A stretch of DNA of 64,000 nucleotides. Source: an uncultured Candidatus Saccharibacteria bacterium (GTDB taxonomy: Bacteria; Patescibacteriota; Minisyncoccia; Phycocordibacterales; CAIRYW01). The translations under genes and the position numbers were made by a program. Positions 5,341 to 64,000 of this stretch are shown piece after piece; position 1 is the stretch's first letter; each line of letters begins with the position of its first letter. The notes beneath the pieces are model-generated. The model was not told where the DNA came from. It saw only the letters and a list, made by a program, of their open reading frames with translations, and ran no database searches. The stretch spans positions 72,786 to 136,785 of the forward strand of contig CAZKPS010000001.1 in assembly GCA_964554765.1 (NCBI GenBank), given 5' to 3'.

Positions 5341-5462
5341 ATATTTTTAATTTGTAGCTAATGTGTATAGAATACCACATTTTTATTATTAGGTCAAAAC
5401 AATATTGTATAGAATTATAATAATACGTTCATATATAATGATATAATTCTGTTGATAATTAA

Positions 5463-5490: not shown

Positions 5491-6260
5491 TGGAGTATAT
5501 GAAGGAAAAACTCTTAAAGATAGGCCTCAACCCTACTGAAATAGACATCTACCTCACCCTCCTAGAGCATGGCAAACTTCTGCCTGCAAATATAAGTAAA
5601 TTAACAGGTATCAACCGAAGTACGGCATATGCAGCCTGCGCAGAATTGTTGAAGAAAAACATTATTACAGAAGATCTCTCCGGTAAAACCAAATACTTTG
5701 TAGCACTCCCTCCAGAAAACCTCAAAAATCAAGTAAACAAAAAACTCCGGGAAATCAAAATCGAGGAAAGCATTATTAACGAGCTTATTCCAGAACTCGA
5801 GTCACTCCCAAAGTCCGGTAATTATTCAATACCTAGGGTACAGGTAGTTAATAGTGATGATATAGAGGATTTTCTCTACAAAAACACACCAATATGGGAA
5901 AAGAGTATGCGAGATCTAAATGAGAAGACTTGGTGGGGTTTTCAAGATCATGCCTTTGTAGAAAGTGACAAATATCGAAAATGGATTCTCTGGTATTGGA
6001 ATCGATCATCTGAAGATATGGATTTAAAACTTTTTACAAATGAATCCAAGATTGAAGAAAGAATGAGAGAGAAGAATATAACGAGAAGAAAACTGAAACC
6101 GTGGACTGGAGATAATTTTAGCTCAACACAATGGATACTTGGTGAATATATAGTATCCATTATGACTCGAGGAAAGCTCCACTACCTCGTACAAATTCGA
6201 GACCGTGTACTCGCAGATAGTATGCGAAATATGACAAAAAATCTCTGGATTAAGGATTAA
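5481..6260 (+). CDS. TrmB-family transcriptional regulator (likely true start ATG 5499)
   Basis: The track ORF begins at a TTG. From the ATG it reads MKEKLLKIGLNPTEIDIYLTLLEHG...INRSTAY, a TrmB-type N-terminal wHTH followed by a C-terminal sensing-like domain. Confidence 0.75.
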   Translation: MLQLEYMKEKLLKIGLNPTEIDIYLTLLEHGKLLPANISKLTGINRSTAYAACAELLKKNIITEDLSGKTKYFVALPPENLKNQVNKKLREIKIEESIINELIPELESLPKSGNYSIPRVQVVNSDDIEDFLYKNTPIWEKSMRDLNEKTWWGFQDHAFVESDKYRKWILWYWNRSSEDMDLKLFTNESKIEERMREKNITRRKLKPWTGDNFSSTQWILGEYIVSIMTRGKLHYLVQIRDRVLADSMRNMTKNLWIKD

Positions 6261-18417: not shown

Positions 18418-18455
18418 ATAAAAATGCATCGCACCTTTGGTGCGATGCATTTTCA
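18418..18455 (-). terminator. Rho-independent terminator (minus strand)
   Basis: Hairpin atgcatcgcacc-tttg-gtgcgatgcat preceded on the plus strand by an A-run, which gives a T-run on the minus transcript. Confidence 0.6.
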
Positions 18456-22745: not shown

Positions 22746-22904
22746 ATATATATTATTTATTACTTACCTATCTATTATCTATAACCCCAATTTAGATGCC
22801 TATAATACACAGAAATTGGAGAAATACAAAGCGAAATTGTATTTAGTATATTGTATATGGTATGTAGTATAAAATACGTAAATTTTAAATCCCCTCACCA
22901 CTCA

Positions 22905-23627
22905 CTACTTATGACTCATCACTAATGCAGTCGCCACCATTGCCGCAGTCTCCGCCCGAAGAACTGTGTCTCCCAATTTAAATGTTTCAACACTTAAATT
23001 CTTAAATGATTGCATTTCCCTCTCGCCCCATCCCCCCTCAGGTCCAATAAGTATTTTTATTTCTTTTTCTCCATTTAATATTTCAGATTTGTTTCGAGCT
23101 TCGACATTCGAATTTCGGATTTCTTTTCCTTCCATATCAAAAACAATCACATCTGGATTTTCTCTTAATACATCTTCAAGATTCATTGTCTCACCAATAG
23201 TCGGCACATCTCCTCGTCCACATTGCTCACTCGCTTCTTTCATTATTTTTAGAGCTCGCTCAATATTCAAATTCTTACTCTGGGTTCTCTCAGATATTAC
23301 AGGCACAAAATGCGTCACCCCAATCTCCGTACACTTCTCGAGCACCATCTCAAAATTATCTTTCTTAATAAGTGACATATAGAGTGTCACCTTTTTTGAT
23401 ACTGTTATGTTTTGAATGGTTTCAACAAATCCAAATTCTGCTTCTTTCTTAGAAATAATTCTCGCCTCATATATATAATCTAGTCCATCCCCATTAAAAA
23501 ATATCACTCGGTCCCCCTTGGCAAGTCGAAACACGTCTCGGAGCTGGTGTAGTGCCGCCTCATCCCGAAGTGTCATAGTATCCTGCCCCGCCAAATGTTC
23601 TGTTGTATAGAATCTGTGTAATCGCAT
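22905..23627 (-). CDS. rsmE: 16S rRNA (uracil1498-N3)-methyltransferase RsmE
   Basis: 240 aa, RsmE/SPOUT-knot motifs (GPEGGW, LRAETAA). Confidence 0.85.
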   Translation of the reverse strand: MRLHRFYTTEHLAGQDTMTLRDEAALHQLRDVFRLAKGDRVIFFNGDGLDYIYEARIISKKEAEFGFVETIQNITVSKKVTLYMSLIKKDNFEMVLEKCTEIGVTHFVPVISERTQSKNLNIERALKIMKEASEQCGRGDVPTIGETMNLEDVLRENPDVIVFDMEGKEIRNSNVEARNKSEILNGEKEIKILIGPEGGWGEREMQSFKNLSVETFKLGDTVLRAETAAMVATALVMSHK

Positions 23628-23861: not shown

Positions 23862-24593
23862 TTATTTTCTAGAATTTTGCCACAGGTATGCAAATATCTT
23901 TCGGAATGCATCAGAAATAATTTTGTTCTTAAGAATCATTCCCATCGGCTCCTTTTTATCAAAAGCCACAATTGCAAGCTTATCGTCAAAAATATTAATC
24001 TCAATCCCCAGATCCTTGAACACATCGGAGAATCTCATATCACGAAGAAGCTCTTTAGCTCGAGTTTTATCTCTCTTGCCATATTTATCCATCGGAAGCA
24101 AACTCTTGACCGATACCCCAGCTTTCACTCGATACGGAAAATAATCTTCATCAAAAAAATCATTCATAGTCTCATATGCTTTTTGATAGTCAGTGATAGC
24201 GAGGATATGCTTCTCATTATTCTCTCTCCAAGTCTCACCGTAGAGTTTCTTTACCGCCTCTTTCCCTTCAAAATACCGAATACCCGAATGTAGTACTGGA
24301 TACTTTTTCTTTTTGAACACCCCTCTAAGTTTTTCCGATTCTTCCTCGAGAGATTTTATCTTTCTTTTAGACCACACCTCAAACTCCTCCTCCGAAATAG
24401 ATTGAAAAAGTGTCGTATCATTTTTCTTGATCTGACTTACAAGCCCCTTCTCTTCGAGAAGAGTGAGCGTGTGATAAAGTGCTGTTCGATTGAGACTCGT
24501 GTCCTTGGCGATCTGGGATACGGGAGATGGTCCGAAACTTGCGAGAGCTTCAAACACCGCTCTCTCCTTTTCACTCATGAGTTCGTTATTCAT
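23862..24593 (-). CDS. TrmB-family transcriptional regulator
   Basis: N-terminal wHTH (VFEALASFGPSPVSQIAKDTSLNRTALYHTLTLLEEKGLV), C-terminal domain. Confidence 0.7.
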   Translation of the reverse strand: MNNELMSEKERAVFEALASFGPSPVSQIAKDTSLNRTALYHTLTLLEEKGLVSQIKKNDTTLFQSISEEEFEVWSKRKIKSLEEESEKLRGVFKKKKYPVLHSGIRYFEGKEAVKKLYGETWRENNEKHILAITDYQKAYETMNDFFDEDYFPYRVKAGVSVKSLLPMDKYGKRDKTRAKELLRDMRFSDVFKDLGIEINIFDDKLAIVAFDKKEPMGMILKNKIISDAFRKIFAYLWQNSRK

Positions 24594-29133: not shown

Positions 29134-29931
29134 TTATTTTTCCTCAGTTTTACCGTCCAACCTTTTCGCCTCTTTCCACGCTAGTTCAAAAAGTTTTTTG
29201 AGAGCATCAGCAATCTCTTCACTTTCTATAATAATACCAAGCTCCTCTCTCCAGGATGCAATCATCACTTTGTTATCATAAATTTCTATATCAGGAGAAA
29301 TGTCAAAAAGTTCTTTTGGTACAAGAGCGAGCTCTCGAGCCTCAAACGGATTCATCTTTTTTCGCTCAAGTGCCAACTCTGTTGCAGGAACAATACCCCG
29401 AACAAACAAACCCTTCGCCGCCCGTCTCCTGTAATAGTCAGGAAAATATCCTTTGAGAGTTTTGTGCATATCATCATAGGAAGCCATTGCCACAAAAGGT
29501 CCAGATGCAGTCAAGGTATCTTCATATACTTTTTTCATTCCCTCAATACCTTCATAAAATTTTACTTGTGGCCGAGTACCGACTTTATACATGGACTTAA
29601 GCTCGGGCAATAGTAATTGTGCATACCTATAGTCCTCTTCTTTTCGCTCAATATTGTGACGCAGAAATTTTAATATCTGTTCAGGATCCTCACATCGATA
29701 CTCTTGTTTTGGTTCTTTCCCAGAAATACTCACAAGACCCTTTTGTGCCAGGCTTGCCAAAATATCGTAGGCACCCGTTCTATTAATACCAGCCCTTTTT
29801 GCAATCTCACTTACTTTACCTTTTCCTATCCCTAAGAATGAAATGTAGAGCTCAGACTCTTTTTTGTTGAGACCCAGCTTTTGTAAAGCGTTTTGAAAAG
29901 TTCCACTCTGACCTTCTTCGTATTTTGTCAT
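29134..29931 (-). CDS. TrmB-family transcriptional regulator (close paralog of 62920..63708)
   Basis: wHTH (SEIAKRAGINRTGAYDILASLAQKGLVSISGKEPKQEYR). The C-terminal IYDNKVMIASWREELGIIIESEEIADALKKLFELAW is shared with the paralog. Confidence 0.75.
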   Translation of the reverse strand: MTKYEEGQSGTFQNALQKLGLNKKESELYISFLGIGKGKVSEIAKRAGINRTGAYDILASLAQKGLVSISGKEPKQEYRCEDPEQILKFLRHNIERKEEDYRYAQLLLPELKSMYKVGTRPQVKFYEGIEGMKKVYEDTLTASGPFVAMASYDDMHKTLKGYFPDYYRRRAAKGLFVRGIVPATELALERKKMNPFEARELALVPKELFDISPDIEIYDNKVMIASWREELGIIIESEEIADALKKLFELAWKEAKRLDGKTEEK

Positions 29932-31443: not shown

Positions 31444-32241
31444 TTATTCGTATTTCGTTCCTGTCCAACTCAATTCAAAAATCATCTTCATAAGTCCGTG
31501 AATTGTTGGATCTTCGATAATGACTCCTGTTAACTTTTCTTTACCGAGGTTTATGATCGAAACATTTTTTTCACCATAGATTGTAATCTCGGCCTTGTAG
31601 GGGAATTTCTCTGCCGGGATGAATCGTGCATTAGGCATCAATTCTTCTTTGAAATCACCGTACGATCTCTCAACAAAGGTCTTGTCTATGTTTGTATCTG
31701 GGAAAATAACTCTTGAACTAATTCCTTTCTGTTTCTTTGTCTTAATATAATTTCTAAAAAAGTCTCTCGGCACCTGTTCCTCCACCTCTTGAACATTCGC
31801 CCACGCGAGCATTTCATATGGCTTCGATACATTAATATGTGTTGCATAAATATCAAGCACACCCTCAATACCTTCATAATACGTAATCTTTGGTTTATCG
31901 GCCGCTCCCAATAACCCCTCGAGATCAGGAAGAATCCTCTGGACATTCTCAATCTCATCTTGGATGATAGACATTTTGGATTTGGCATACCGCACGAGCT
32001 TGGTTGGACTCTCGAGTTGATAGAATTGTTTATTCTTCTTTTCTATCTCATTCACTACCCCCTTTACTGACATTTGGGTGAGCAACATATAGACCGTACT
32101 TCGATTAAGTCCAGTGTATTCTGCAATCTTTGACGGATATGCTCCTCCGAGCTCAAGGAGTGCTACATATATTAAAGACTCTTTGTCAGAGAGACCTGAC
32201 TTTTGGAGCTTTTTGAGGAGATTTTCGTGTTTTATGCTCAT
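31444..32241 (-). CDS. TrmB-family transcriptional regulator
   Basis: wHTH (IYVALLELGGAYPSKIAEYTGLNRSTVYMLL) plus a C-terminal domain. Confidence 0.75.
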   Translation of the reverse strand: MSIKHENLLKKLQKSGLSDKESLIYVALLELGGAYPSKIAEYTGLNRSTVYMLLTQMSVKGVVNEIEKKNKQFYQLESPTKLVRYAKSKMSIIQDEIENVQRILPDLEGLLGAADKPKITYYEGIEGVLDIYATHINVSKPYEMLAWANVQEVEEQVPRDFFRNYIKTKKQKGISSRVIFPDTNIDKTFVERSYGDFKEELMPNARFIPAEKFPYKAEITIYGEKNVSIINLGKEKLTGVIIEDPTIHGLMKMIFELSWTGTKYE

Positions 32242-34710: not shown

Positions 34711-34766
34711 AATCCTAGATTTTATAAGAAAGTAAACAAGAACCAAGTATTCAAGTAAACAAACAA

Positions 34767-34803
34767 ATGCAGCGCGCCCTACGGGCGCGCTGCATTTGTT
34801 TAG
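34767..34803 (+). terminator. Rho-independent terminator after clpP
   Basis: Hairpin atgcagcgcgccc-tacg-ggcgcgctgcat followed by TTGTTT. Confidence 0.7.
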
Positions 34804-45046: not shown

Positions 45047-45781
45047 CTACTCACTTTTCTCCCAGAGCATCTTCCAAACCGATCTGAGACTCTCGGCAAT
45101 TGATTGATTTTTGATGATGATTCCCATCTCGTCTTTAGTTGAAAGCATCGCCACTTTATCGTCGAAGATCATAATTTCATTATTTATCCTGTGGTTTTCT
45201 GGTATCAGACGCACCTCTCTCAAAACTTCCTCCCCTTCTCTCTTATCCTGTTCCCCCACTTCACCACCTGGAGCGAATCCTCGAACCCTAATCCCCTTCT
45301 TAACCCTCTGCCTTACATAATTATCTACATACTCCCCACCAAAATACTCCTTCACCTCTTTGGAATTTGTAAAAGTCAAAATCTCTCCCTTTGATAATAA
45401 ACTTTCTTCATAGATTTGCTTAAGACCCTCCCTTGTACTGACAGTTGTGATTCTTGGCCTTTTCTCATTATTTTTATTTTTGACCAAGTCAACTAGACTC
45501 TCCTCGAGTATCCCGAGCCCCTCTTTATGTTTCTTTATCAGAATCTGAGGATTGAGCGCCCCAAAGTACATAACACCCTTCATCTTAAACCCTGACACAA
45601 TACCTCTACTCGAAAGGCGCTTCAGGACCTCAAAATTAGTAATCCGATTTAGCTTTGATTCTCTAGCAATCTGACTATTTGTTGCCGAACCGAGCCCAAG
45701 GAGTGCTAAATAAACCGCCGCCTCGTTCTCCGAGAATCCTAATCCACCAAGTTCTTTCCTGATATCAATCTGCATATTCAA
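45047..45781 (-). CDS. TrmB-family transcriptional regulator
   Basis: wHTH (AAVYLALLGLGSATNSQIARESKLNRITNFEVL). The C-terminal MGIIIKNQSIAESLRSVWKMLWE is shared with the family. Confidence 0.7.
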   Translation of the reverse strand: MNMQIDIRKELGGLGFSENEAAVYLALLGLGSATNSQIARESKLNRITNFEVLKRLSSRGIVSGFKMKGVMYFGALNPQILIKKHKEGLGILEESLVDLVKNKNNEKRPRITTVSTREGLKQIYEESLLSKGEILTFTNSKEVKEYFGGEYVDNYVRQRVKKGIRVRGFAPGGEVGEQDKREGEEVLREVRLIPENHRINNEIMIFDDKVAMLSTKDEMGIIIKNQSIAESLRSVWKMLWEKSE

Positions 45782-47175: not shown

Positions 47176-47685
47176 GTGAAATATTATACCTCCAAACTAG
47201 CTAGCATGTAATGTTGATAAGTCTAAGATCTATCCTTTGTGCCTGAGCATAGCTCCTGTTCCACATGAAATGTGCAAGAGAATAAACCACAGTACCCACA
47301 TGGCACGGAGCCGTATATTCCAGGGTTTTCATGTGTAACGAAATTTAGAGTGTTTCTTATGAAACGTTTTGTGGGTAAAACCCATAAAGTACACTAAATT
47401 CTGATTATATCCATACAAAATAAGGGTATTCTAGAAAAGTCCGATAAAATAGTTGTCTTTTATAGATTTGTCTTATACACATATCCACCGAGTTATCCAC
47501 AGTTTGTTGATAAATATGGGTGATTTCTGGGGAGAAAGAGAGGAAAAGGACAGGACGGATTAGGTCCTGTAGGTCTCAACAACTAGGGGAGAAAATCGGT
47601 CACAAGTTGTCCGTTTGCCGTCGCGAACAGACACTCGCAACTCCGGCTCGTCCGTTTTGTGTGCTCACAAAACATGACTGCGTCC

Positions 47686-50669: not shown

Positions 50670-50711
50670 TGTGGATAACAATGTCTTTTATAAAAGACAT
50701 TGTTATCCACA
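50670..50711. repeat. Near-perfect 20-bp palindrome containing two inverted DnaA-box consensus 9-mers (TGTGGATAA / TTATCCACA)
   Basis: tgtggataacaatgtctttt at / aaaagacattgttatccaca. It sits inside a ~900-bp AT-rich stretch (49900..50807) with no ORFs. Confidence 0.6.
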
Positions 50712-50807
50712 AAAAATTTTAGGTGATAATAGTTAATTAACCAAATGAAAATGCATTGCAATCAATGGTTGCAATGCATTTTCTGAATTCATTCAATATA
50801 CAATATT

Positions 50808-52150: not shown

Positions 52151-52177
52151 TTTCTATACTACATACAATATACAAAA

Positions 52178-52220
52178 TACTACATACTACATACTACATA
52201 CTACTTACTACTTCTTACTA
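52178..52220. repeat. Heptamer microsatellite, (ATACTAC)x4 followed by degenerate copies, immediately 3' of the xer stop
   Basis: Tandem atactac atactac atactac atactac ttactac ttcttac. Coordinates may be off by 1 nt. Confidence 0.55.
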
Positions 52221-53125
52221 TGAAATTTTTTATGCACTTCTCGAAGATGTGAGTCAGTGACGTGGGTATAGATTTGAGTAGTTGAGATATTTGCGTGTCC
52301 CAAAAGCATCTGTACAGAACGTAAGTCAGCACCATTGCGGAGCAAATCAGTCGCAAAACAGTGTCGTATCACGTGGGGAGTTACTTTTTTGGATACCCCT
52401 GCTTTGATTGCATAATATCTGATTAGTCTTTGAATTGAGCGGGGAGTCAGGGCTCCGTCTTCTTTTTTTGCTCTTTCATTGCCCACTTTTACAAAGAGAG
52501 CACCGTCGAGGTCTTTACGGAGATTCAAATATGTTTTCACCATTGATTTTGCTTCATCGGAAAGGAAAACAACACGCACCTTACCACCTTTACCTCTGAT
52601 AGAGAGCTCATCCTGACGAAGATCAATATCCCGATCAAGTGAACAAAGCTCGGACACTCGAAGTCCAGTAGAGAAGAGGAGTTCCAAAATAGCCTTACCA
52701 CGAGCCTTTTTTTCTTGATTCTCCTCATTATTTGGCGCATCAAAGATTCTCCGGAGTTCATCTGCAGAGATGAGGTCGAGTGATCTCTCGCCGGTTTTCG
52801 CAAGCTCTATATAGTCTGCCGGTAGGGTAGTAATCCCTCGTTTTGCTATGTATTTGAGAAATGCGCGGAGAGCAATGAGATAATAGTTTTGAGTTCTTTT
52901 CTTGAGAGTTTCATTGAATTTACGATTGTTGCCTGTTACCTGTCGGTTAAGCCAGAGACGATATTCACGCATTATTTCTGGAGTAATATCTTTTGGATCG
53001 GTCTTTTTAAAGAATTCGAGAAACCGAGTAAGGTAATGATCATAATTCTCAACAGTCTTGAGGCTGCGACCTTTTTCGATTTCGATGTGTTCAAGGAATT
53101 GTCTTTTGAGGGTGAGTAGATCCAT
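52208..53125 (-). CDS. Tyrosine recombinase, XerC/XerD family
   Basis: 305 aa with an N-terminal SAM-like domain and the catalytic motifs RHCFAT and LGHANISTTQIYTHV. Confidence 0.85.
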   Translation of the reverse strand: MDLLTLKRQFLEHIEIEKGRSLKTVENYDHYLTRFLEFFKKTDPKDITPEIMREYRLWLNRQVTGNNRKFNETLKKRTQNYYLIALRAFLKYIAKRGITTLPADYIELAKTGERSLDLISADELRRIFDAPNNEENQEKKARGKAILELLFSTGLRVSELCSLDRDIDLRQDELSIRGKGGKVRVVFLSDEAKSMVKTYLNLRKDLDGALFVKVGNERAKKEDGALTPRSIQRLIRYYAIKAGVSKKVTPHVIRHCFATDLLRNGADLRSVQMLLGHANISTTQIYTHVTDSHLREVHKKFHSKK

Positions 53126-59804: not shown

Positions 59805-59830
59805 ATCAAAAAGTAGAAATCAAAAATAAT

Positions 59831-59866
59831 AAATCCGCGGCACCTAAAGGTGCCGCGGATTTTTAA
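59831..59866 (+). terminator. Terminator after pnp
   Basis: 12-bp stem atccgcggcacc / ggtgccgcggat followed by TTTTAAT. Confidence 0.7.
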
Positions 59867-59867
59867 T

Positions 59868-59905
59868 ATAAAAATTAGTCTGCAAGATTTTCATCTTGCA
59901 GACTT
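59868..59905 (-). terminator. Convergent minus-strand terminator
   Basis: Hairpin gtctgcaaga-ttttca-tcttgcagac, followed on the minus strand by TAATTTTT. Confidence 0.55.
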
Positions 59906-59944
59906 GGGTTCAACAAGTATCCTGAAGTGTAAGACAACAAGAAT

Positions 59945-60592
59945 CTAAAAGGTTTCTCTTGTTTCGCTTGTATCTATGTAACCAATCACTGTTTGTGGTA
60001 TTACATTTTCATTAACACCAGAGAACCATTCTTCAGATCTAACGATTCTTGGATTGTGGAGATCCTCAAAGTCGACAACAAGAACACTTCGGCAGAGATG
60101 TGGGTAAATACGAATTTGATTCCACCCATAACCGATTTTAAACCCTCCGTGGGGCACACGATTATAGTATCTTTCACACCACCCTCTTTTCTCTTTCTCA
60201 ACAAGTTCCCATACTTGTGGACGCATAAGTGAGAGGAACACTATCCTAACATACCTCCTCATCATAAATATGTCGGATACACATTGGTGCTCAATTGACC
60301 TTGGTTTTTGAATTAAGTCACTATTTTTCTCAAAATATCCTTGTATCAGGTAATTTGAGACACTGTGTCTTGGCAGAAGTTTCCGTGCTCTCATCACAAA
60401 CTCTTCTTCTCCCATCTCCAAATACGGTGATTTTTGATCATGCCTAAACAGTTCAATTTGTGAGGGATGGTGTATAGGTAGAAGATTCAAACGAATACCC
60501 CTCCTCTTCAAGAAAGGTTCTCCGATATGTTGAAAGAGAAAACGATTTGAAAAAAACAGATTCATCATAATTATATTTGGTTCGACCAGCAA
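59945..60592 (-). CDS. Hypothetical protein
   Basis: 215-aa ORF. The true start may be internal (MNLFFSNRF). No recognisable domain. Confidence 0.45.
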   Translation of the reverse strand: MLVEPNIIMMNLFFSNRFLFQHIGEPFLKRRGIRLNLLPIHHPSQIELFRHDQKSPYLEMGEEEFVMRARKLLPRHSVSNYLIQGYFEKNSDLIQKPRSIEHQCVSDIFMMRRYVRIVFLSLMRPQVWELVEKEKRGWCERYYNRVPHGGFKIGYGWNQIRIYPHLCRSVLVVDFEDLHNPRIVRSEEWFSGVNENVIPQTVIGYIDTSETRETF

Positions 60593-60719
60593 AACTTCAT
60601 GTTATACCGGCTTCACCTCCTCCTAACATCATTATTCAATAATTTCGTCAAAAATCAATATTAAAAAATTGATTTTTTAGTATTTATAGTATAAACTGAC
60701 GAAAATAATTCGTCGTCAT

Positions 60720-61505
60720 ATGGAAAATGTATTAAAACAATTGGGTTTAAATGAAAAGGAGATTTTAGTCTATAAATCACTCTTGGAAAGAGGTGCTTCG
60801 ACATCATCTTCACTTGCAAATGTTATTGACTTGCCACGACAGACTATCTACTCAATCCTTCAAAAACTATGTGATGAAGGAGTAATTGAGAAAGGCCCGT
60901 GGAAAGGGGCACACAAATTCATTGCCGACCCAACCAATCTTTCATCAATAGTGAGATTTAGGCAGAAAAAACTTACCCAAATAGGAAATACAATTGAGGA
61001 ATTGATGCCAGAACTTCTCACAATAACAAAACTCAGAGCAAACCGAAAACCTTCGGTTCAGTATTATGATGGGGTATTTGGGTTGAAGCGTCTTTTTGAT
61101 GAGATCATTGAACAATACAAAAGAAAAGAAGATACTATGTTTCGAGGATTCGGAATTAATTATTTTGAAAATACAGACATACAAGAAATTTTAAATGATT
61201 TTGTTAGAGAGAGATATAAATATGGTATAAAAACTCACTTACTTATTGGTAAAGGGGGGAATGATTTTGGCATTACGATAGATGGATCAACAACTTTAGG
61301 AAGAGAAGTCCGTAGTATAAATATGGAAGCACAAAATGCTGGCATCTACCTAGTAGGAGATCGTATTTATTTATTTTCTTACGAGGATGATGTGGGAATT
61401 ATGATTGAACAGAAACTTATTGCACAATTATTAAAAAATATTTTCGATTTGGAGTGGGATAAGGCAAAAGAGCTTGATAAAGAAATAAGAAGATTAGAGA
61501 AGTAA
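60720..61505 (+). CDS. TrmB-family transcriptional regulator
   Basis: wHTH (ILVYKSLLERGASTSSSLANVIDLPRQTIYSILQKL). The C-terminal ...WDKAKELDKEIRRLEK is identical to 62920..63708. Confidence 0.7.
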   Translation: MENVLKQLGLNEKEILVYKSLLERGASTSSSLANVIDLPRQTIYSILQKLCDEGVIEKGPWKGAHKFIADPTNLSSIVRFRQKKLTQIGNTIEELMPELLTITKLRANRKPSVQYYDGVFGLKRLFDEIIEQYKRKEDTMFRGFGINYFENTDIQEILNDFVRERYKYGIKTHLLIGKGGNDFGITIDGSTTLGREVRSINMEAQNAGIYLVGDRIYLFSYEDDVGIMIEQKLIAQLLKNIFDLEWDKAKELDKEIRRLEK

Positions 61506-61530
61506 TAAACAGTAAGTAATAAGTAATCAA
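61456..61530 (+). repeat. ~75-nt direct repeat, copy 1 (3' end of the TrmB paralog plus 20 nt downstream)
   Basis: gggataaggcaaaagagcttgataaagaaataagaagattagagaagtaataaacagtaagtaataa, with 1 mismatch versus the copy at 63661. Confidence 0.75.
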
Positions 61531-61532
61531 GT

Positions 61533-61568
61533 GAATGCATCGTGCCCTTCGGGCGCGATGCATTTTGC
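61533..61568 (+). terminator. Terminator after the TrmB paralog
   Basis: Hairpin atgcatcgtgccc-ttcg-ggcgcgatgcat (one G-U pair) followed by TTTGC. Confidence 0.6.
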
Positions 61569-61613
61569 TATAAAAATACCCCTAGAACTTTCGTTCTGAG
61601 GGTTAAAGACACA

Positions 61614-61916
61614 CTAATCAAAAACAAAAAGTGGATGGGAAGTCGTCCAAACAAAAACCCAGATGCGCGGAGATGCCAAGGCACTAAGGTCTGAAGATAG
61701 ATTCTGAATGTTAATCAAACCTTCAGAATCCTTCAAGTGGCATCTGCAAGCAATCTCAAACTCCCCAATCTTCTGCTTTGTCCCAATAGCAAAGTAGAAA
61801 CATTCTACTCTATATCGAGAAGCTCCAAGTTGTTTGGTATGAAGAAATATTCTCTGCCATTGCCTCATCCATTTTTTGCGAACAAAACTCATCAAAAGAT
61901 AAACTAAAAATTTCAT
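61614..61916 (-). CDS. Small hypothetical protein, paralog A of a tandem pair
   Basis: 100 aa (MKFLVYLLMSF...FAIGTKQKIGEFEI). It is weakly similar to 62016..62333 (MNLIIFLIRF...SFVGHQTEHKELIE). Its coding status is uncertain. Confidence 0.3.
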   Translation of the reverse strand: MKFLVYLLMSFVRKKWMRQWQRIFLHTKQLGASRYRVECFYFAIGTKQKIGEFEIACRCHLKDSEGLINIQNLSSDLSALASPRIWVFVWTTSHPLFVFD

Positions 61917-61941
61917 AATATTTGACTAAGTTTGAATGAAC

Positions 61942-62022
61942 ATTAACCTACAAACCAACGACACTCGTCGCGGGTTTGAAAAGTTCCACTTGTTAAGCAC
62001 AAGTGGGAAAGCTTTTTACCAT
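61942..62022 (-). repeat. 81-nt conserved double-hairpin module, copy 1, ending exactly at the stop of the upstream ORF
   Basis: It is ~90% identical to 62397..62477. On the minus strand it reads taa aaagctttcc CCACTTG-tgcttaa-CAAGTGG aacttttcaaa cc CGAC-gagt-GTCG ttggtttgtagg: two small hairpins, each followed by a U-rich tract. Confidence 0.7.
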
Positions 62023-62333
62023 CCACCGCCACAAATTCTAGTAGTTCTCGGAGGAGGGTTATAAAAAGGTGATCCTATTTTGACAAAGGCATACCCCGTA
62101 CACTTAATTTTACTGAGAATATTTTTTTGCTCTTCTATTGTATAAGCAAGCCACAAAGCATGCCTCAGTTCGATGAGTTCCTTGTGTTCTGTTTGATGAC
62201 CCACGAATGAAATTGTCACATTAGTTGACCAGCATGAGACAGGGAAGTTACTCAGATACACCTCTTCTATCTTATATTTCATACCCCTGAACCAACCGGT
62301 GCAGAAGCGAATTAGGAAAATAATCAAATTCAT
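62016..62333 (-). CDS. Small hypothetical protein, paralog B of a tandem pair
   Basis: 105 aa. The stop codon and final Trp are supplied by the TTACCAT end of the 81-nt module. Its coding status is uncertain. Confidence 0.3.
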   Translation of the reverse strand: MNLIIFLIRFCTGWFRGMKYKIEEVYLSNFPVSCWSTNVTISFVGHQTEHKELIELRHALWLAYTIEEQKNILSKIKCTGYAFVKIGSPFYNPPPRTTRICGGGW

Positions 62334-62396
62334 AACAACTAAGGTCTCTCACCTCTTGCCCGAATGGTTATGCCGGGATCGCATTTATTAAAGAAC

Positions 62397-62477
62397 ATTA
62401 ACCTACAAACCAACGACACTCGTCGCGGGTTTGAAAAGTTCCACTTGTTAAGCACAAGCGGAAAAGCCAGTTACCAT
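62397..62477 (-). repeat. 81-nt conserved double-hairpin module, copy 2
   Basis: Same module as copy 1. It ends at the stop of the small membrane ORF 62471..62731, which also terminates ...W*. Confidence 0.7.
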
Positions 62478-62731
62478 TTCAACCAAAGAAAAATGACCCT
62501 AATGACCATTGCACATGTTGCCGACAAGATGAATAGAAGTGTCAATAAATAAATTACAGGGTTCCAAAGGAAGATATTAATTTCGGGAGGGAGAAAAATT
62601 GGCAACACATAAGCAAAAATCAGTTCAAAATACCGACTCTGTTCGATCCTCTCGATGATTTTATTGTTTAGGTAGACCATAACAATAAAAATAATGACAG
62701 TGGTAGTGACTATGGCATTCATAAGTATCAT
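62471..62731 (-). CDS. Small two-TM membrane protein (hypothetical)
   Basis: 86 aa, very hydrophobic. It is the first gene of the minus-strand small-ORF array. Confidence 0.35.
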   Translation of the reverse strand: MILMNAIVTTTVIIFIVMVYLNNKIIERIEQSRYFELIFAYVLPIFLPPEINIFLWNPVIYLLTLLFILSATCAMVIRVIFLWLKW

Positions 62732-62919
62732 TTTTATATATTTTGTTGTTTCAGGAACAGTCCGCTCTTACTGTTCACAGTAAAACATATAAATGATGTA
62801 TGTAAATATATGTCAACATAAATAAAATAATAGTTGTTGATAAACATAGCTTTTTTTGGAATATTTAGATTTTGTCGATGCGGATTGACACAAATAGATC
62901 TGCTTTGTATACTTAAAAT

Positions 62920-63708
62920 ATGGAAAACAAAGGGAATTTCGTTGGTGCCCTCATCAATATGGGTCTCCCAGAAAAGGAGGCTGCAGTTTATGTATCTCTC
63001 CTCGGGCTGGGACTTGCAACAGTAACCGAAATTGCCAATAAATCAGGAATCAATCGAACAACTGTCTACGATATCCTTTCTTCACTATCCCAGAAAGGAC
63101 TTGTGAGCATTTCGGGTAAAGAACCAAAGCAAGAATACAGATCTGAAAATCCTGATAAGCTACTAACATATCTCAAAAACGAACTTGAGCGAAAGGCTCA
63201 AAGTGTGAGGTATGCAGAGCTCATGCTTCCGGAACTTAAATCAATACACAAAATAGGTGAAAGACCTCGAATCAAATTTTATGAAGGTGAGGAAGGTTTG
63301 CGAGAAGTATACGAAGACACTCTCACATCAGAAGAAACTATTTTGGCATATGCCGCAGTGGATGATGTGAACAAAGGGATTGCAAATTATTTCCCCAAAT
63401 ACTATAAAAGACGCGCTGCAAAAAACATTCCTATCCGTGCTATATTTCCCGATACTCCCGTGGCAAGAGAACGATCGGACCTTGATAAAGAGGAGAGGCG
63501 GGAAAGTCTTTTGGTGCCATTTGAAAAATACAGCTTTACTCCCGAAATAAATATCTATGACAACAAAGTTATGATCGCATCGTGGAGAGAAAAGCTTGGA
63601 ATAATTATTGAAAGCGCCGAGATTGCAGATGCCATGAAAAAAATATTTGAACTCTCATGGGATAAGGCAAAAGAGCTTGATAAAGAAATAAGAAGATTAG
63701 AGAAGTAA
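62920..63708 (+). CDS. TrmB-family transcriptional regulator (close paralog of 29134..29931)
   Basis: wHTH (AAVYVSLLGLGLATVTEIANKSGINRTTVYDILSSLSQKGLVSISGKEPKQEYR). The C-terminus is identical to 60720..61505. Confidence 0.75.
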   Translation: MENKGNFVGALINMGLPEKEAAVYVSLLGLGLATVTEIANKSGINRTTVYDILSSLSQKGLVSISGKEPKQEYRSENPDKLLTYLKNELERKAQSVRYAELMLPELKSIHKIGERPRIKFYEGEEGLREVYEDTLTSEETILAYAAVDDVNKGIANYFPKYYKRRAAKNIPIRAIFPDTPVARERSDLDKEERRESLLVPFEKYSFTPEINIYDNKVMIASWREKLGIIIESAEIADAMKKIFELSWDKAKELDKEIRRLEK

Positions 63709-63736: not shown

Positions 63737-63786
63737 TTCTAAATTTGTATTTATACAACATACTATATACAATATACTACATACTA

Positions 63787-64000
63787 TGACTAATGAATTC
63801 CAAGAAGGTGATGAACTAAAACGACAATATATGGAAAAGGCTCTTCACGCTAATGAAGAGGCGACCAGTGGTGCAAAATTTACCGATCTTATTAACAAAA
63901 ACTCTACTGTCTATAAAGACCAAAATCCTCCACAACAACGAGATCGAGCCCCACTTCCCGAAAAACCGACAGTGGATGCTGATGGATACCCTATAATTCA
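63787..64000 (+). CDS. Hypothetical protein, N-terminal part (runs off the window end)
   Basis: Open frame from the ATG reading MTNEFQEGDELKRQYMEKALHANEEATSG... with no stop before the window edge. Confidence 0.3.

Follow-up and report, generated by a model that had tools for sequence, protein, structure and literature searches.

A repeated structured element between small open reading frames

The stretch of DNA analysed here, 64,000 nucleotides (nt) of contig CAZKPS010000001.1 and hereafter called the window, belongs to a bacterium of the Patescibacteria or candidate phyla radiation (CPR), and the relatives of its TrmB-2 protein all come from Patescibacteria/CPR metagenome-assembled genomes. 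Towards one end of the window, two plus-strand genes encoding TrmB-family regulators, TrmB-1 and TrmB-2, flank a cluster of three small minus-strand open reading frames (ORFs), and the junctions between these ORFs are occupied by two copies of a structured element, E1, which is the subject of this report. Each copy contains a first hairpin, H1, and an adjoining second hairpin, H2, and a separate leader, E2, precedes the second ORF. The three co-oriented minus-strand ORFs had been noted in a preliminary description of the sequence, with lengths of 86, 105 and 100 amino acids (aa), and were confirmed at the following coordinates, given here with the neighbouring features.

62920-63708, plus strand: TrmB-2, TrmB-family regulator, divergent from the ORF cluster
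62731..62471, minus strand: ORF86, 86 aa, hydrophobic, first gene of the cluster
62390..62477, minus strand: E1 copy A, 88 nt between ORF86 and the ORF105 leader, scoring 121 bits with the covariance model
62441..62461, minus strand: H1 of copy A, CCGCUUGU-GCUUA-ACAAGUGG, with one G·U pair
62400..62440, minus strand: H2 module of copy A, outer stem AACUU/AGGUU around CAAACC-C-GCGAC-GAGU-GUCGU-U-GGUUUG
62334-62389, minus strand: E2 leader, ~55 nt directly 5' of ORF105, sequence AUGCGAUCCCGGCAUAACCAUUCGGGCAAGAGGUGAGAGACCUU
62333..62016, minus strand: ORF105, 105 aa, C-terminus ...RICGGGW*
61935..62022, minus strand: E1 copy B, 88 nt between ORF105 and ORF100, orthologous to the copy at 5351-5448 on the related contig L010
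61986..62006, minus strand: H1 of copy B, CCACUUGU-GCUUA-ACAAGUGG, a perfect 8-bp stem
61945..61985, minus strand: H2 module of copy B, identical in sequence to that of copy A
61916..61614, minus strand: ORF100, 100 aa, third of the co-oriented ORFs
61570-61602, minus strand: canonical intrinsic terminator of the three-ORF unit, CCCUCAGAAC-GAAA-GUUCUAGGGG followed by UAUUUUUAU
61534-61564, no strand assigned: bidirectional hairpin separating the convergent TrmB-1 gene and ORF cluster
60720-61505, plus strand: TrmB-1, TrmB-family regulator, convergent to the ORF cluster

As a canonical hairpin-plus-U terminator stands after ORF100, both copies of E1 lie within the transcription unit. Both ORF105 and ORF100 are real genes, conserved but narrowly distributed: ORF100 shares 64% aa identity with its L010 orthologue, with a ratio of nonsynonymous to synonymous substitution (dN/dS) of ~0.09 and saturated synonymous sites (proportion of synonymous differences, pS, 0.72), and for ORF105 the protein identity is 44% (pS 0.83; proportion of nonsynonymous differences, pN, 0.36). 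An exhaustive HMMER search and a profile search recovered just four other proteins of the ORF105 family, all encoded on short Patescibacteria-like contigs with a divergent TrmB gene adjacent; the family is tiny and restricted to Patescibacteria. The preliminary description had allowed that the ORFs might not be conserved as proteins anywhere, which does not hold for ORF105 and ORF100, and had taken two of the ORFs for weak paralogs, a relationship that could not be demonstrated (ORF105 vs ORF100, BLASTP E=16; hhalign probability 5.5%, P=0.007, colinear, 15% identical). No homologue was found for ORF86, and its position on the related contig L006 is taken by an unrelated membrane ORF of 122 aa. 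There is no homology between ORF86 and ORF105, and both bear E1, which bears out the earlier statement that non-homologous ORFs carry the same module. Neither ORF86, ORF105 nor ORF100 matched a family in Pfam, NCBIfam, PADLOC or PHROGs, the predicted structure of ORF100 is poor (predicted local distance difference test, pLDDT, 52), and the host hexamer coding measure is weak for all three. None of the three is called with these sequences in the source annotation (NCBI/ENA), and the analysis recovered ORF105 and ORF100 as two unannotated conserved small genes. The same annotation calls a 42-aa plus-strand ORF (61936-62064) over E1 copy B, which is likely to be a mis-annotation, given that the conserved minus-strand ORF105 and ORF100 were missed. 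ORF105 and ORF100 share a reading frame both in the window (61916-62018, minus strand) and in L010 (5034-5453, minus strand).

The two copies of E1 form an 88-nt direct repeat with 93% identity, including 66 consecutive identical nt. The duplicated double-hairpin element of the preliminary description is real, although its length is 88 nt and not 81, and the two upstream ORFs do end inside it, albeit at its 5' edge in the ORF sense and not at its end: both copies open with ATGGTAA, which holds the Trp codon and stop (TGG-TAA) of ORF86 and ORF105, respectively. Read in the ORF sense, ATGGUAA is followed by a spacer of ~9 nt, by H1 (consensus of both copies CCRCUUGU-GCUUA-ACAAGUGG) and then by the outer stem enclosing H2, which adjoins H1 as a 41-nt extended hairpin of 5+6+5 bp with two small bulges. 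Each copy folds as two hairpins, with z-scores of ~-3 as RNA and -3 to -5 as DNA. The two hairpins had been described as each followed by a U-rich tract; the hairpins were confirmed, but the tracts are poor (AACUUUUC after H1, UAGGUUAAUGUUC after H2), and there is a third stem, AACUU/AGGUU, which encloses H2. A terminator scan left the H1 tail AACUUUUC unflagged on the minus strand and flagged the inner H2 stem with the tail UGGUUUGUAG.

A 28-nt piece of E1 had 0 chance matches in 100 shuffles, and neither this piece nor a scan with the full model revealed a third copy in the window. Outside E1 the two 455-nt units do not align, and a tandem duplication of the 455-nt unit was rejected for this reason. 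No internal σ70-type promoter was found within E1, no terminal inverted repeats were seen at the element, and with two copies in 64 kb, both in the same operon, and seven in ~935 kb it does not qualify as a repetitive extragenic palindromic (REP) or bacterial interspersed mosaic element (BIME), or as a miniature inverted-repeat transposable element (MITE). Searches of Rfam 15 gave no E1 match at the gathering threshold, and at E-values up to 10 (window, L077 and L024 sequences) all hits were far below gathering and unrelated. The junction between H1 and H2 (AGTGGAACTTTTCAAA) is matched exactly over 16 nt in a TrmB paralog, within the 5' coding region (29892-29907, minus strand), where it encodes SGTFQ; with the same sense and a borderline E-value, this was judged a probable chance match.

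The E2 leader is a conserved non-coding sequence found upstream of every ORF105-family gene, in six genomes (L006 5321-5380; L010 ~5778-5830; L085 ~290-341; L086 ~60-112; L087 ~890-941, in addition to the window). It contains two small hairpins and a strong Shine-Dalgarno-like sequence, AAGAGGUGA, which is sequestered in one of them, has a boxA-like UGUUCUUUWAYAA at its 5' edge, and gave no match in Rfam. The proposal of a boxA-like sequence following E1, GUUCUUUAAUAA, was rejected: this sequence shows no enrichment and forms part of E2, at the 5' edge of that separate leader.

Distribution of E1 in related genomes

Related loci were fetched through TrmB-2 homology, and ~935 kb of Patescibacteria DNA was scanned with a covariance model made from copies A and B and iterated once for the second L024 copy. 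Syntenic copies of E1 were found in two other species, on contigs L010 (5351-5448, 98 bits) and L006 (5380-5475, 86 bits), and diverged full-length copies at L077 1042-1133, L024 4752-4857 and, after the iteration, L024 1040-1139; L008 contains an H1-only version. The possibility raised in the preliminary description that the element occurs only at this locus is thus removed by the copies on L010, L006, L077 and L024. There were no further copies in the ~935 kb, and a model of H2 only added none. Exact-word scans gave 0 matches in genome contigs (23-mer), two chance matches only in metagenomes (20-mer, L002 and L003) and 0 matches in a viral collection apart from one chance match (18-mers, L005), and a blastn search of 61523-62919 against phages and plasmids gave no match. 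The seven full-length copies stand in the following contexts.

Window copy A: upstream ORF86; downstream E2 leader and ORF105
Window copy B: upstream ORF105; downstream ORF100
L010: upstream ORF105 homologue; downstream ORF100 homologue
L006: upstream 122-aa membrane ORF; downstream E2 leader and 265-aa ORF
L077: upstream periplasmic binding protein; downstream sigma factor
L024a: upstream 203-aa ORF; downstream 273-aa ORF
L024b: upstream 221-aa ORF; downstream 246-aa ORF

Co-oriented ORFs are present on both sides of all seven full copies (7/7), the downstream ORF lying within 19-60 nt. E1-related elements stand after seven different upstream ORFs in five genomes, in agreement with the earlier proposal that the module is tied to gene ends or junctions and not to one particular gene. 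H1 starts 8-11 nt past the stop codon in 6/8 instances, counting the H1-only version of L008, and in L024 the distance from stop to H1 is ~42-45 nt.

Conservation, covariation and strand

E1 is under exceptional constraint at the RNA level and is far better conserved than the genes surrounding it. Between the window and L010, 67 of the 68 nt in the E1 core are identical (98.5%), compared with 56% of the coding sequence of ORF105, 70% of ORF100, 67% of TrmB-2 and 78% of PNPase, with only 36-47% identity at third codon positions; over the same distance the terminator after ORF100 has drifted with compensatory changes. A 68-nt non-coding core at 98.5% next to PNPase at 78% marks a strongly selected RNA without a catalogued family. 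Within the window the cores of copies A and B are 97% identical, vs 90% for copy A and the copy at the equivalent position in L006.

A structure-blind MAFFT alignment of the seven copies led RNAalifold to predict H2 and the outer stem, with 8/16 pairs changed on both sides. The model-fitted alignment had 12/24 pairs changed on both sides and 95% of its cells paired, vs 31-48% when the partners were slid, and 0/500 shuffles reached the observed values. The sequence of H1 is wholly different in L077 and L024, yet it always forms a hairpin. Every stem substitution in L006 or copy A is a transition, with G·U as the result in the minus-strand RNA and A·C on the plus strand, and since these changes give G·U in the ORF-sense RNA only, the selected molecule is the minus-strand transcript. 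With compensatory pairs and G·U pairs on one strand, E1 shows the generic features of a structured cis-acting RNA, in a small sample of seven sequences.

The relatives of H1 point to its origin. On L085 and L087 the ORF105 homologue is the last gene, and is followed by an H1-like hairpin (CCAGUUUAUCUUUAAACUGG) with U7 and a convergent def gene, and on L008 an almost identical H1 with U6 ends a radical-SAM gene facing a convergent gene. H2 is absent from these operon-end loci (L085, L087 and L008). Where a co-oriented gene follows, H2 is present and the U-run of H1 is shortened to UUUU or lost, H1 of L077 having no U-run. By this comparison H1 is homologous to, and derived from, the canonical terminator which ends the ORF105 gene where that gene is the last of its operon.

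History of the locus

The organism of the window or a sister strain is represented in SRR14234074 and JGI 3300055001. A contig from a sister strain, L004, is 93% identical to the window and lacks 2.2 kb comprising the ORF cluster, both E1 copies and TrmB-2, such that the end of TrmB-1 runs straight into the gene which follows TrmB-2 in the window. The ends of the two TrmB genes share a repeat, D1, with the following copies.

61419-61522, plus strand: D1 left copy, TrmB-1 3' end and 17 nt, one boundary of the segment absent from L004
63622-63725, plus strand: D1 right copy, TrmB-2 3' end and 17 nt

D1 is 104 nt long (the last 87 nt of the gene and 17 nt past the stop) and 84% identical between the copies, while the TrmB proteins are just 28% identical. 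The deletion junction in L004 (1010-1098) falls inside D1, and the deletion is a homologous-recombination event at D1, not at E1. The cluster stands between PNPase and the TrmB-2 orthologue in L006 and L010, and it is therefore ancestral and dispensable and not a recent insertion. Gene content varies further, as L010 lacks the unit of ORF86 and its E1 copy, ORF105 is the only one of the ORFs in L085 and L087, and the cluster is missing altogether from L004. The non-homologous segment between the window (62468-62798) and L006 (5463-5874) consists of the first ORF and its 5' untranslated region (UTR), with the breakpoint a few bases past the stop codon, at the 5' edge of E1. The variation in related strains that the preliminary description proposed to look for is seen at the E1 edge in the ORF replacement of L006, which supports the association of the module with gene ends, but not in the L004 deletion, which is bounded by D1. 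The higher identity between copies A and B (97%) than between copy A and its L006 counterpart (90%) indicates intragenomic conversion or duplication in the window genome, which may also have copied the TGG-TAA of ORF105, and would account for ORF86 and ORF105 both ending in Trp-stop.

Possible functions of E1

We tentatively favour the view that E1 is an intercistronic structured-RNA "punctuation" module of a small-protein operon. E1 would be a conserved structured part of a polycistronic ORF-sense mRNA, transcribed from an operon divergent from a TrmB-family regulator in a subclade of the Patescibacteria. H1 and H2 may attenuate read-through transcription, define processed RNA ends protected by the hairpins, or both, and the cistrons upstream and downstream could thereby be set at different levels. 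H2, found only where a co-oriented gene follows, would mark continuation of the operon, and its near-invariant sequence may be what a putative, conserved trans-acting protein or RNA recognises; binding of H2 by such a factor is probable. The two copies in the window may have arisen by intragenomic duplication or gene conversion.

Several points weigh against this interpretation. The attenuation, the processing and the trans-acting factor which it invokes are all deduced from sequence, and termination cannot be the general function of E1, because H1 of L077 lacks any U-tract. A simple punctuation role leaves the near-invariance of the loops and junctions unexplained, and the constraint is not uniform, the L006 copy being only ~90% conserved. 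The covariation signal comes from seven sequences in five genomes, and the diverged members among these were found by a structure-aware model, which biases the pair counts. The related loci were also chosen by TrmB-2 homology, and both the distribution of E1 and its association with TrmB genes are seen through these loci only.

A more far-reaching proposal, to which we give less credence, is that E1, and especially H2, represents a new class of functional RNA in Patescibacteria which acts as docking site for a conserved cellular factor. This could be an antiterminator, an RNase or a ribosome-associated protein, or E1 could form a ribonucleoprotein with the adjacent orphan small proteins; if so, it would govern rapidly exchanging genes for small membrane or secreted proteins beside TrmB regulators.

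The element could alternatively be a regulatory 5' leader of the downstream gene, riboswitch-like or protein-binding, with H2 sensing a ligand or binding a regulator that controls read-through or translation of ORF100, ORF105 and others, and with the link to the upstream stop codon being incidental. The restriction of H2 to sites with a co-oriented gene within 19-60 nt, and its absence where H1 ends the operon, would fit such a leader, as would the fold backed by covariation and the way in which near-invariance tracks a downstream ORF100 (98.5% between window copy B and L010, ~90% for L006, which lacks ORF100). We nevertheless consider it unlikely, as the downstream genes are unrelated (ORF100, ORF105-type genes with their own E2, a sigma factor, and the 273-aa and 246-aa ORFs), no mutually exclusive alternative pairing that involves the start region is conserved, a ligand pocket would find little room in a simple extended hairpin, and no Rfam family matches E1. 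Somewhat less likely again is a duplicated tandem intrinsic terminator without further function, which was the conservative reading of the preliminary description. Both hairpins are terminator-like, with the inner H2 stem and its tail UGGUUUGUAG flagged on the minus strand, the next-best matches of model R1 in the window are canonical terminators, and the relatives of H1 with U6-7 are real operon-end terminators; the part of that reading which stands is the terminator ancestry of H1. E1 is however operon-internal, with the canonical terminator located after ORF100 (61570-61602), its U-tracts are degenerate or, in L077, absent, and 67/68 identity amid saturated synonymous sites far exceeds what a terminator needs, the true terminator having drifted.

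That E1 is a recombination module at cassette boundaries, either an attC-like site for a site-specific recombinase or a homology arm for the exchange of small ORFs between genomes, as reportedly proposed for the PeSL elements described below, is highly improbable, even though the gene content of the locus varies (L010, L085, L087 and L004), the segment not shared by the window and L006 comprises precisely the first ORF and its 5' UTR and ends at the E1 edge, and the cores of copies A and B are homogenised (97%, vs 90% between copy A and L006). The integron version of this proposal, raised speculatively in the preliminary description, fails on core sites, on fold and on the recombinase of the window. 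As had been noted there, canonical attC core sites are lacking: no RYYYAAC...GTTRRRY pair at 50-150 nt occurs on either strand of 61500-62800, and the only GTTRRRY heptamer, GTTAAGC (61992 and 62447), sits in the H1 loop. The DNA and RNA folds of both strands are two independent hairpins and not a single bulged hairpin with R and L boxes, and the sole tyrosine recombinase in the window (52208-53125), 9 kb away, is of the Xer type, scoring 230-240 bits on XerC, XerD and XerA models vs 132 bits on the integron integrase model (cutoff 265). This removes a false integron lead. For recombination modules in general, the L004 deletion is bounded by D1 in the TrmB genes and not by E1, the G·U pattern points to selection on RNA and not on double-stranded DNA, and window copy B and the L010 copy are positionally orthologous and not mobile. 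Scarcely credible is a recoding signal in which the hairpin stimulates read-through of the ORF105 stop, giving low levels of an ORF105-linker-ORF100 fusion. In its favour, the frame common to ORF105 and ORF100 is kept in both the window and L010 although indels lie within the interval, only one stop codon, a TAA, intervenes in L010, the stop-to-hairpin distance is 8-11 nt in 6/8 instances, and in L006 the ORF105-type gene extends beyond an internal ...CCGGSW to a greater length of 265 aa. Against this, a further in-frame stop of the window (TAG) precedes the ATG of ORF100 by four codons, a 2-nt indel shifts the E1 frame between the window and L010 and there is hence no conserved linker peptide, reading on through copy A or the L006 copy meets stops, and these copies are out of frame with the next gene, the stop codon is UAA, and the spacing in L024 is ~42-45 nt. 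Finally, protein coding on the plus strand is effectively refuted: the 42-aa ORF (61936-62064) is in the NCBI/ENA gene set, and 3/5 differences between copies A and B are synonymous in its frame, but its start codon is not kept in copy A, no plus-strand ORF of 40 aa or more covers E1 in L010, L006 differs by six non-synonymous vs two synonymous changes, and the hexamer coding score is negative.

E1 is a real and out-of-the-ordinary feature, a candidate new RNA motif with a limited known distribution and an unproven function. The CPR/Patescibacteria form a large uncultured share of bacterial diversity, and to our knowledge both gene regulation and the numerous orphan small proteins of this group are almost unstudied. 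The covariance models, the seven instances and the position rules provide a testable handle on the partitioning of expression inside operons of reduced genomes.

Other features of the window

Six TrmB-family paralogs are encoded in the 64 kb of this reduced CPR genome.

23862-24593, minus strand: TrmB paralog
29134-29931, minus strand: TrmB paralog
31444-32241, minus strand: TrmB paralog
45047-45781, minus strand: TrmB paralog
60720-61505, plus strand: TrmB paralog (TrmB-1)
62920-63708, plus strand: TrmB paralog (TrmB-2)

Terminator hairpins with a common core, AAAUGCAUCG...CGAUGCAUUU, recur at unrelated gene ends, in the window at 18421-18453, 61534-61564, 50747-50783 and 34761-34801 and in relatives at L006 4351-4403 and L086 ~645-680. 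They are ~90% conserved between species even with a different upstream gene, and the terminators of the clade seem to fall into families of similar sequence. The 0.9-kb gap between PNPase and TrmB-1 (59805-60719) contains two terminator hairpins (59831-59862 and 59877-59904) and a single ORF (59945-60592, 215 aa), which scores poorly and matches no family, and of which the first 56 codons have 93% protein identity to the sister strain L004. Upstream of the gene that follows TrmB-2 there is an AT-rich motif (63752-63787) with TATACWACATACTAT as its repeated unit, and similar sequences are located just downstream of the Xer recombinase gene (52155-52203) and between the RNA-methyltransferase and trigger-factor genes (22836-22926). 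A 42-nt perfect palindrome at 50670-50711 contains two perfect, inverted DnaA boxes (TTATCCACA), a cluster of DnaA-box-like 9-mers is found at 47212-47513, and the cumulative GC-skew has its minimum near 50-52 kb; the origin of replication may therefore lie in this region.

Comparison with known systems

Like an integron attC site, E1 is a conserved structured element after non-homologous co-oriented small ORFs, with ORF content that differs among relatives; unlike attC it lacks the R''/R' sites, the single bulged hairpin and an intI/attI, it is selected in the RNA sense, and one copy is orthologous across species. The promoter-early stem-loop (PeSL) elements of T4-type phages are reportedly mobile regulatory cassettes (Arbiol, Comeau and Krisch, 2010). 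E1 resembles these in being a conserved stem-loop module flanking small orphan ORFs in a variable region, where it could provide homology for ORF exchange, but differs in having no promoter consensus, a chromosomal context, and no similarity to phages or plasmids. In type III toxin-antitoxin systems, too, a small protein gene is directly preceded by a structured RNA that has terminator-like hairpins; E1 however has no short tandem repeats, no defence or toxin family was matched by ORF100 or ORF105, and E1 also stands upstream of a sigma factor and other unrelated genes.

The resemblance to intrinsic or leaky terminators lies in the stable hairpins right after the stop codon, in the homology of H1 to hairpins with U7 (L085 and L087) or U6 (L008), and in the layout of H2, which has the A-tract, stem and U-rich sequence of the host's terminators, whereas the operon-internal position, the degenerate or absent U-tract, the fixed two-hairpin architecture and the near-invariance across species set E1 apart. 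Intercistronic processing and stability elements, such as the RNase III sites of phage T7 and the REP stabilisers of E. coli, differ from E1 in that E1 is of low copy number (2 in 64 kb, 7 in ~0.9 Mb) and is known from the sequence of an uncultured CPR bacterium. Differential decay within operons, as described by Dar and Sorek (2018; PMC5927463), belongs to the same group. E1 shares with intercistronic elements of this kind the conserved hairpins between cistrons, repeated inside a single transcription unit. The extended imperfect helix of E1, ~16 bp, is also of a size found in RNase III substrates.

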